Shown in pieces: positions 8,482 through 8,831 of a stretch of 64,000 bases of DNA. Position numbers and translations under genes: made by a program. Within the stretch, counting starts at the first letter, position 1. The number at the start of each line of letters is the position of its first letter. The DNA is taken from positions 1 to 64,000 of the forward strand of contig JAZDPV010000018.1 in the NCBI GenBank assembly GCA_043797265.1, written 5' to 3'. The notes below the pieces were generated by a model. The model ran no database searches and was not told the DNA's origin. It saw only the letters and a program-made list of their open reading frames with translations. Source of the DNA: an archaeon (GTDB taxonomy: Archaea; Nanobdellota; Nanobdellia; Pacearchaeales; GW2011-AR1).

Positions 8482-8578
8482 TGGGGATACCCTACTCGCA
8501 ATTTGCATTTCGCAAAACAATTTTAGTTTTAATTTTGCTCGAAGCGAATTGCTCGGGATTTGATTTCAAATCCGAGTA
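8482..8578 (-). repeat. tRNA-Pro 3'-end-like fragment carrying the ~61-bp hairpin element
   Basis: tggggataccc and ggatttga resemble the tRNA 3' end and flank 8495-8555, which is nearly identical to 8711-8771. Confidence 0.75.
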
Positions 8579-8615
8579 CTATTTAATTATTAGATTGCTT
8601 TGCAATCTAATCTTA

Positions 8616-8688
8616 TGGGGCTACCCGGATTTGAACCGGGGTCGCGAAGTCCCAAACCTCGAAGGCTACCAGACTACCCCATAGCCCC
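8616..8688 (-). tRNA. tRNA-Pro(TGG)
   Basis: Cloverleaf: GGGGCTA/TAGCCCC acceptor stem, CGAGG-TTTGGGA-CTTCG anticodon arm, CCCGG-TTCAAAT-CCGGG T arm. Confidence 0.95.
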
Positions 8689-8697
8689 ATGTTGTTA

Positions 8698-8831
8698 TAG
8701 GGCTACCCTGCTCGCAATTTGCATTTCGCAAAACAATTTTAGTTTTAGTTTTGCTCGAAGCGAATTGCTCGTTTAGACCAGGGGTCGTGAAGTCCCAAAC
8801 CTCGAAGGCTACCAGACTACCCCATAGCCCT
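8698..8831 (-). pseudogene. second tRNA-Pro(TGG)-like copy with a ~61-nt structured insertion in the T loop
   Basis: 5' two-thirds nearly identical to 8616-8688; acceptor AGGGCTA/TAGCCCT and T stem CCCTG/CAGGG still pair. Confidence 0.75.

Follow-up and report, generated by a model that had tools for sequence, protein, structure and literature searches.

The 64,000-nucleotide (nt) window analysed here (positions 1 to 64,000 of contig JAZDPV010000018.1, assembly GCA_043797265.1, from an archaeon of the Pacearchaeales) carries on its minus strand a tRNA-Pro locus with three tRNA-like pieces: a full-length copy whose T arm is split by a 61-nt hairpin insert (copy 1), an intact gene, and a 3' fragment that follows a second copy of the insert (Table 1). 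An earlier sequence-only reading had noticed this triple arrangement, and it proved real. We call the insert EL and the source genome G000 (624,983 bp in 18 contigs, 83% complete); C-numbers denote contigs of this genome. The two inserts differ at 1 of 61 positions, and a 22-nt piece of EL occurs exactly twice in the window, with no match of any kind in 100 shuffles. The GCTCG direct repeats that had been described around the insert do bound the first one; the second has ACTCG on one side. A short hairpin at 8590-8610 had been thought to tie the locus to a hairpin family, a link that we had to drop: the genome holds no other copy with up to one mismatch per arm.

Table 1. Parts of the tRNA-Pro locus in their order along the minus strand, followed by the sites of a second hairpin family, H3, outside the window
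Feature	Position	Strand	Remarks
uL11 gene	ends 8864		from the table of open reading frames; protein named by reading the translation
Promoter-like box AACTTTATTAAT	8865-8854	-	conserved; 22 nt ahead of copy 1 position 1
Copy 1, entire (interrupted full-length tRNA-Pro-like copy)	8831-8698	-	T arm split by EL
Copy 1, 5' part	8831-8772	-	acceptor, D arm, anticodon arm (UGG), variable region, T-stem 5' strand, non-canonical loop GTCTAAA
EL copy 1, 61 nt	8771-8711	-	5'-C GA GCAATT C GC T T...A T GC A AATTGC GA G-3'
Copy 1, 3' part, CAGGG TAGCCCT A	8710-8698	-	
9-nt spacer TAACAACAT	8697-8689	-	final 3 nt (CAT) match the ancestral sequence upstream of the tRNA
Intact tRNA-Pro(UGG)	8688-8616	-	ARAGORN; Rfam RF00005 tRNA, 57 bits
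Perfect 10-bp palindrome ATTAGATTGC AAA GCAATCTAAT	8611-8589	-	unique
c' TACTCGGATTTGAA	8578-8565	-	inverted copy, 13/14 (14 nt, 93% complementary), of the intact gene's T loop, T-stem 3' strand and TA
c TCAAATCC	8563-8556	-	8-nt direct copy of tRNA positions about 55-62; pairs with c' as a hairpin
EL copy 2, 61 nt	8555-8495	-	1 difference from EL copy 1
3' fragment TAGGGTATCCCCA	8494-8482	-	rest of T stem, acceptor 3' strand, discriminator base; TA GGG TATCCCC A, plus TA trailer to 8480
T-run TTTTTATTTTT	8450-8440	-	first oligo-T beyond the locus
eL43 gene	8391-8182		closes the region after the T-run
H3 sites outside the window	C5:19951-19974, C2:10719-10742, C2:9852-9875, C16:40482-40505, C18:78317-78401, C12:39046, C12:101758		

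The intact gene is 100% identical to the tRNA-Pro of three relatives (G056, G061 and G023; 74-77 nt aligned), and it is without a TATA-like box of its own at the usual distance. Copy 1, which neither ARAGORN nor Rfam calls, stands where the relatives have their tRNA: its start is exactly the tRNA start of relatives, and the box AACTTTATTAAT with the identical 22-nt spacing to tRNA position 1 recurs in relatives with a single tRNA-Pro. The box would be an archaeal promoter. The middle gene is the working tRNA-Pro and is probably transcribed from this box through copy 1 and its EL; RNase P would then cut the tRNA out of the precursor. The T-run TTTTTATTTTT is the likely end of the transcription unit.

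Copy 1 does have the A1-U72 and CCCTG/CAGGG pairings that the sequence-only reading had pointed out. As a sign of selection, these double changes are weak. Only A1-U72 is a clean double change, because the CA that completes CAGGG is the commonest dinucleotide found after EL (CA 22, TA 17 of 72); for A1-U72, a rough estimate of chance occurrence is about 0.07, given about 7 changes. The need for the upstream promoter may be the reason why copy 1 keeps a tRNA-like fold.

EL copies across the genus

Sought throughout the genome, the insert turned out to be one member of a family. A profile built from 13 seed copies and run over the G000 contigs (E < 0.01) returned 21 copies, and two more with the same termini bring the count to 23 in 625 kb, with sizes of 54-88 nt. 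Eighteen of them lie within 150 nt of a tRNA called by ARAGORN, against an average of 0.48 and never more than 3 when copies were placed at random 2000 times. Two further copies belong to a tRNA-Ile array and to an intron-bearing tRNA-Asn, and the other three sit in the 16S rRNA gene and at two paralogous loci that have no Rfam match. About 15 of the 31-33 tRNA loci of G000 are affected, with insertion points in the T loop, T stem, anticodon loop or D loop. Beyond this genome, 24 genomes of the genus were sampled, and 20 gave EL matches at E <= 0.01 (E < 1e-5 in 17), while 16 genomes of other families of the order gave just 4 short, weak matches. A strict pattern of the EL ends matched 83 metagenome stretches; the same end pattern found 0 matches in viral contigs. 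Rfam holds no family for EL, nor for the two stand-alone loci on C14 and C12.

The boundaries and the fold of EL are defined by covariation among 46 distinct copies from G000 and its relatives. At stem positions 3-8, 10, 11 and 13, between 36/40 and 46/46 distinct sequences can pair, and compensatory types occur at two neighbouring pairs (TA 38, AT 8) and at pair 3 (GC/GT/AT). Four non-canonical oppositions, G.A, A.G, C.A and T.T, are invariant (36-46 of 36-46 distinct sequences), and inside the hairpin the stem and the loop show free variation of both sequence and length. The ends GAGCAATTCGC and GCAAATTGCGAG are complementary and co-vary. With a search pattern that left both positions free, the closing pair, formed by the base before GAG and the last base, also co-varies (C-G 47, T-A 20 and T.G 2 of 72 metagenome instances), and the pair just outside it shows no complementarity, so that the boundaries are exact: the unit is a closed hairpin, 5'-Y GA G...C GA R-3'. 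We considered reading the CGAG/CGAAA internal loop as a K-turn and rejected it by eye, as one strand has 3 extra nt and the G.A pairs of this loop are missing in a TTTTGCG sub-family.

Around EL, pieces of the neighbouring tRNA gene stand in an order that recurs: intact tRNA, a few nt, c', 0-4 nt, c, EL, mostly YA, and what is left of the tRNA, continuing to 1-13 nt beyond its end. Here c is a direct copy of the 7-9 nt that precede the insertion point, and c' is an inverted copy of c and the next few nt of the intact gene. At many different tRNAs and positions the centre of this palindrome keeps a constant 7-9 nt from the EL 5' end, about three target nt are replaced at the insertion point, and the direct repeats have variable lengths of 11-21 nt. 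Where the tRNA is on the opposite strand the layout is mirrored, with the 5' end of the gene duplicated and the palindrome drawn from the D arm (Leu-UAG, Leu-CAA). An antisense orientation of EL relative to the tRNA was seen at Trp, Cys, Phe, Leu (twice), Arg and Asn. Full-length interrupted duplicates are found at Pro (copy 1), Trp and Cys, besides a longer interrupted Arg copy and a 24-nt 5' duplicate upstream of tRNA-Phe. The duplicates decay: the interrupted Trp copy has an extra G in its acceptor 3' strand, the 3' half of the Cys copy has diverged, and Rfam at E <= 0.01 calls no interrupted copy as a tRNA. For every tRNA-associated EL an intact tRNA copy is adjacent. Units also occur in tandem (three at tRNA-Ile and two at tRNA-Met in G000, two to three in relatives). 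In one clade, at tRNA-Ile, c' alone is mismatched to the present T stem, with c and the 3' fragment still matching; c' is therefore a fossil and not a maintained structure.

At sites that tolerate it, in the 16S rRNA gene and in intergenic DNA, EL is found as a simple insertion without duplication or direct repeat. The 16S copy (C14:142-200) is antisense in the 5' part of the gene, near positions 192-200 of the archaeal small-subunit rRNA model, where 65 nt take the place of 8 consensus positions and the flanks are not duplicated. The two stand-alone loci (C14:21990-22130 and C12:101900-102190) are paralogous units, each combining an AT-rich box with a 40-nt hairpin, EL and a T-run. The C12 unit is preceded by four to five roughly 20-nt C-rich repeats (TCCCCTCCCCGTTCC...), which might be origin-recognition-box-like. 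Short C-rich or G-rich tandem repeats of a heptamer-like kind (CCACTAC / GGGGTAG) were also seen beside several tRNA/EL loci, at C1:18225-18260, at C16:10560-10600 and on C6 upstream of tRNA-Asn. ARAGORN called 24-31 tRNAs in this 83%-complete assembly and found no gene for several isoacceptors (e.g. Ala, Tyr); its calls include a tRNA-Glu(CUC) with a 134-nt intron (C1:6090-6296) and the tRNA-Asn with a 29-nt intron (C6:6601-6704).

Strand polarity and signs of movement

The GC skew of G000 is extreme, with contigs from -0.53 to +0.44 and a median |skew| of 0.41 in 3-kb windows, and its sign is constant along the window; we took it as a marker of the replication strands. The sense strand of EL is the C-rich strand in all 23 copies (18 loci, 12 contigs), and the tRNA genes are split 16:15. 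Because of this difference, we conclude that EL orientation and layout follow the chromosome strand and not tRNA transcription. In 16-kb contexts from five relatives the same rule held for 19 of 24 copies, and for 18 of 19 where |skew| was at least 0.1. The layout is equally polar: the intact gene lies on the EL 5' side for 17 of the 20 tRNA-associated copies in G000 (the exceptions are copy 1 at Pro, the downstream Arg copy and Asn), and for 23 of 25 metagenome copies that have a tRNA within 150 nt. As to gene-strand bias as a cause of the skew, a crude overlap filter gave 218:264, a count made from stop-to-stop open reading frames, which are unreliable here, antisense frames staying open. 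Stop-poor antisense strands give this genome many long spurious open reading frames.

A second hairpin, H3 (AAGTAACATCGAAGATGTTTCATG), is unrelated to EL. It occupies D-loop sites within duplicated 5' fragments of the Arg, Val and Ser tRNA genes, has compensatory stem variants, and is flanked by inverted copies of the tRNA fragment. Its polarity is of the same kind as that of EL: eleven of 13 hits of a loose pattern are on one strand, the two others looking like chance matches, and every clear copy has the same orientation to the skew.

Several comparisons speak of recent copying between loci. The EL copies at C5:20320 and C12:79189 (Arg-UCG and Thr-CGU genes) differ at one position, as do those at C9:477 and C3:3023 (Ile and Gly-CCC genes), and in both cases the two copies have unrelated flanks of local origin. 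Synteny around tRNA-Pro (uL11, promoter, tRNA-Pro, eL43) is kept throughout the genus. EL with a 3' fragment is present downstream of tRNA-Pro in 6 of 26 relatives, all independent assemblies, in two different layouts; the order intact tRNA, short palindrome, EL, 3' fragment is also found in metagenome contigs. The remaining relatives with readable flanks have an EL-empty tRNA-Pro 3' flank made of a short trailer or of unrelated small genes. In G050 and G043 the unit lies between perfect repeats of 21 and 17 nt that include 13 and 9 nt of lineage-specific trailer, and the duplication was therefore DNA-level and lineage-specific. The upstream interrupted copy was found in 0 of the 26 relatives.

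Unrelated small protein-coding insertions were also observed between tRNA-Pro and eL43 in several relatives (L030, L031, L035, L038 and L046), and by these comparisons the tRNA-Pro 3' flank looks like a general integration hot spot. At tRNA-Ile, extra 3' fragments are present at 11 of 29 loci, and the T-loop site is occupied, in different genomes, by at least four EL sub-families with shared GAG..AATT / AATT..GAG ends and different interiors, as well as an unrelated insert in one relative. Such sub-families with EL-type ends (e.g. TTTGCTCGAATTTTTC...GAAAAATTTTAGAGTGAA) were seen at this site at C9:368-432 and C7:3443-3489 and in relatives L165, L166, L170 and L174.

Interpretation and rival explanations

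Our preferred interpretation, to which we give a probability of about 0.68, is that EL is a genus-wide, strand-specific miniature non-coding hairpin element that targets tRNA loops and leaves pseudo-copies beside the intact gene, and that it is not an intron. The results above show the existence of the family, its target preference, its exact boundaries, its strand polarity, its recent copying between loci, its survival only beside an intact gene and the decay of the pseudo-copies. In outline, this bears out the earlier suggestion of a tRNA-targeting miniature element that duplicates its target, now as a multi-copy hairpin family spread through the genus with an intact copy always next to the tRNA-borne insertions. 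By analogy with IS200/IS605, REP or attC systems, EL would act as folded single-stranded DNA during replication. The targets would mostly be single-copy and presumably essential tRNA genes, so that only insertions beside an intact copy are seen. Insertion would be coupled to local re-copying of the target, either by way of an intermediate some 8 nt from the EL 5' end, capped by a hairpin or folded back (template switch), or through a restart at a fixed distance; it is the constant 7-9 nt distance of the palindrome centre that points to such an intermediate or restart. A trans-acting, hairpin-specific enzyme, HUH/Y1-like or Xer-like, would do the work. At tRNA-Pro there would have been two stacked events, one leaving copy 1 as an upstream full-length pseudo-copy at the ancestral promoter position and the other leaving a downstream 3' fragment behind a short palindrome built from T-arm sequence.

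The H3 layout (c, H3, c', gene) fits the outcome of a simple hairpin-primed fold-back on the nascent strand. For the EL layout (gene, c', c, EL, fragment) we tried a staggered cut, a hAT-like flank hairpin, a nick and displacement like that of the adeno-associated virus Rep protein, and fold-back priming, and none of them gives this order without extra template switches. We suggest, tentatively and well short of an even bet, that EL and H3 together reflect an undescribed DNA movement, in which, during replication, a DNA 3' end at the loop of a tRNA arm receives the closed hairpin and fold-back or template-switch synthesis is then primed from the paired terminus or restarts about 8 nt away. If this were true, the intact gene, the polar partial duplicate and the palindromic joint would all arise automatically, and an element that encodes nothing would insure itself against killing an essential target.

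A number of observations weigh against our interpretation. There is no transposase tied to EL: Y1_Tnp is found in just 12 of 49 genomes of the genus and is absent from the EL-rich, near-complete G005, G012, G013 and G053. In G000, the only trace is a partial frame of an IS200/IS605-type Y1 transposase (C18:86959-87294, 112 aa, HUH motif present, N-terminus unclear), and this remnant has no EL-like ends within 1.5 kb. Genes for Xer-like recombinases gave matches in 47 of 49 genomes, often 2-3 or more per genome, and nothing links them to EL. No autonomous parent of EL was seen in G000 or in viral contigs, the relatives not having been searched exhaustively, and the EL copies have no target-site duplication of fixed length. 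The strand rule is invisible in small windows (0.85-3 kb) from relatives and metagenome contigs, which gave 15:12 and 39:41 and were uninformative, with a median |skew| of about 0.1, and the test in larger contexts is limited to the five relatives. Folded as single-stranded DNA, EL has only modest stability (z -0.2 to -2.4 against shuffles); the case for the hairpin rests on covariation, not on folding energy. The A1-U72 pair and the paired T stem kept by copy 1 could mean some constraint on its fold. Finally, the direct repeats end near the tRNA ends (+1 to +13 nt), which a pure DNA mechanism does not explain; if selection and deletion trim away the junk, the two could be reconciled.

A further idea is that copy 1 is a second functional tRNA-Pro gene, or a tRNA-like RNA, whose EL is a non-canonical intron cut by the splicing endonuclease. 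The pairing that copy 1 keeps in A1-U72 and the T stem would fit, but our data make this very unlikely. Deleting EL in silico lets ARAGORN call a tRNA-Pro in 13 of 320 boundary combinations, and within EL there is one register that resembles a bulge-helix-bulge (BHB) motif (two 3-nt bulges on opposite strands around a 4-bp helix), with an AAU bulge, a UCGC/GCGA helix and an AUU bulge. The outer and inner helices of this register have 2 bp each. The AAAA/TTTT variants (8 of 46 copies) and the copy in 16S rRNA break the register, yet through compensatory changes each of them retains the plain hairpin. Our BHB scanner was crude and gave many chance hits in controls, so only this covariation argument counts. 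With a cut at the register, the T loop would be some 13 nt too long, and exact removal of EL leaves the loop GTCTAAA(C), without the conserved T54, C56 and purine 57. The antisense position of EL in the Trp, Cys, Phe and Leu copies, the broken acceptor stem of the Trp copy and the diverged Cys copy, and the lack of any Rfam call for an interrupted copy also speak against splicing. The anticodon of copy 1 is that of its intact neighbour, and its absence from the 26 relatives has been noted above. An artefact, in which the triple arrangement is a repeat-induced chimera of a metagenome-assembled genome, is less probable still. It would agree with the frequent position of EL copies at contig ends in relatives (e.g. 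G008:C9:91, G004:C25:16, G022:C49:185), with runs of N inside some EL arrays, and with our screen of 24 public sequencing runs, each of which shares just 0.04-0.06 of the stretch's words and none of which contains the stretch. The locus nevertheless lies more than 8 kb inside a 91-kb contig, and its three tRNA-like pieces are distinguishable by specific substitutions. The assembly chimera, which the sequence-only reading had itself named as a danger, is an unlikely source of the downstream unit in view of the same layout in the 6 independent assemblies and in metagenome contigs; the upstream copy 1 is known from the G000 assembly alone.

Two other explanations deserve more weight, although we hold both to be unlikely. 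EL could be a functional RNA module, that is, a structured pre-tRNA leader or trailer or a small RNA freed by tRNA-processing enzymes, with the hairpin as a protein-binding site and the tRNA fragments as processing handles. The invariant non-canonical pairs are typical of protein-bound RNA motifs, folding as RNA with flanks gives z -3.0 and -4.0, EL at tRNA-Pro would be transcribed if the intact gene relies on the upstream promoter, and the loci at C14:22043 and C12:102064 resemble small stand-alone units, each with an AT-rich box, a 5' hairpin, EL and a T-run. Against this, the orientation tracks the DNA strand and not the tRNA. Where the tRNA is on the opposite strand, its transcript would carry an antisense EL with different mismatches. 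Nothing fixes the inner stem and loop, one and the same tRNA-Ile fragment site is taken by different sub-families across genomes, the flanking c' decays, and Rfam has no match. We regard as slightly less probable than the RNA module that the pairs of intact gene and fragment are integrase scars, with EL as an arm of a decayed element or as a tiny single-stranded hairpin mobilised by an Xer-type enzyme. The anticodon and T loops, where the exchange points of EL lie, are reportedly also where integrases cross over. The wide distribution of Xer-like genes (two or three per genome) and the unrelated small gene insertions in the tRNA-Pro 3' flank of several relatives are in line with this. Complete and partial tRNA copies as direct repeats are an integrase signature, according to PMC9897764. 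Between the repeats, though, there are just about 25-110 nt and no gene, and a double-stranded circle of such a size is implausible. One EL sequence occurs at many tRNAs, each time with locally derived flanks, and enters 16S rRNA and intergenic DNA as a simple insertion without repeats; the strict orientation to GC skew would also be unexpected for classical integrases.

Significance and comparison with known systems

If EL is the miniature element that we favour, then even DPANN genomes of 0.6 Mb carry active-looking non-coding mobile hairpins, at about half of their tRNA loci. In assemblies of this kind, EL would account for tRNA calls that are odd or missing, for fragments of pseudo-tRNAs and for contig breaks. 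Its strict strand polarity, together with the palindromic joints, offers a natural data set for replication-coupled insertion and duplication, and if the enzyme were found, it would represent a hairpin-specific DNA-joining activity with a defined small substrate.

Among hairpin repeats, EL can be compared with the bacterial REP/REPIN sequences with their RAYT (a Y1 HUH enzyme). As described in the literature, they are short, non-coding, imperfect hairpins in tens of copies, with fixed end mismatches and a variable middle, non-autonomous and persistent in a lineage, and EL shares these traits. Unlike EL, REPINs lie dispersed in intergenic DNA, show no aim at the loops of tRNA arms and bring no partial gene duplications. 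The EL host, moreover, is an archaeon; we found no single-copy Y1 gene flanked by EL, the distribution of Y1_Tnp (12 of 49) being set against that of EL (20 of 24 genomes). IS200/IS605 elements and their miniature derivatives (PATEs) resemble EL in having ends defined by hairpins and no target-site duplication. Their chemistry is said to act on single strands, with copies oriented relative to the replication strands, and an orientation bias of this type is what EL displays, both in G000 and in the relatives with sufficient skew. They depend, however, on a pair of unlike subterminal hairpins and on a target of 4-5 fixed nt. EL is one closed hairpin with only a pyrimidine-purine closing pair, and apart from the closing pyrimidine, which belongs to EL itself, its left flanks have no motif in common. 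Miniature inverted-repeat transposable elements are likewise short, non-coding and multi-copy with terminal inverted repeats, as is EL, but come with a target-site duplication of fixed length, which EL lacks. In the attC sites of integrons, hairpins with conserved ends, fixed unpaired bases and a free centre are recognised as folded single strands; the attC end motifs are missing from EL, which does not lie between gene cassettes. IS1397-type insertion sequences insert into hairpin loops (palindromic units), and the intervening sequences of bacterial 23S rRNA are hairpins whose insertion rRNA genes tolerate, but the former are full insertion sequences and the latter are confined to rRNA, both unlike EL.

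At tRNA genes themselves, two systems are relevant. In Thermoproteales, for which transposition of non-canonical tRNA introns has been proposed, many tRNA genes reportedly have short inserts that are related to each other and lie at numerous sites, the T arm among them. These introns lie in the only gene copy, in sense, inside a BHB, and are spliced, in contrast to EL, which lies in redundant pseudo-copies, in either orientation and without a conserved BHB. Integrases are said to use exchange points in the anticodon or T loops, and integrase-borne elements, like EL, leave behind an intact gene and a partial direct-repeat copy. They measure 9-23 kb or more and bring their own integrase and their own copy of the tRNA end, whereas EL has about 61 nt, local fragments and an added inverted copy of the target. 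That a complete and a partial tRNA copy standing as direct repeats reflect integrase action at tRNA genes is stated in PMC9897764.

In our search of openly available literature, made mainly at the level of abstracts, hairpin elements in tRNA-arm loops of DPANN archaea were not found described. No known prokaryotic element family fully matches the proposed mechanism of insertion and duplication, and there is a real chance that this mechanism is new. Taken together, EL works most like REPIN/REP or IS200/IS605-derived hairpin repeats, and its outcome resembles the target duplication of integrases, while it fails defining features of each.

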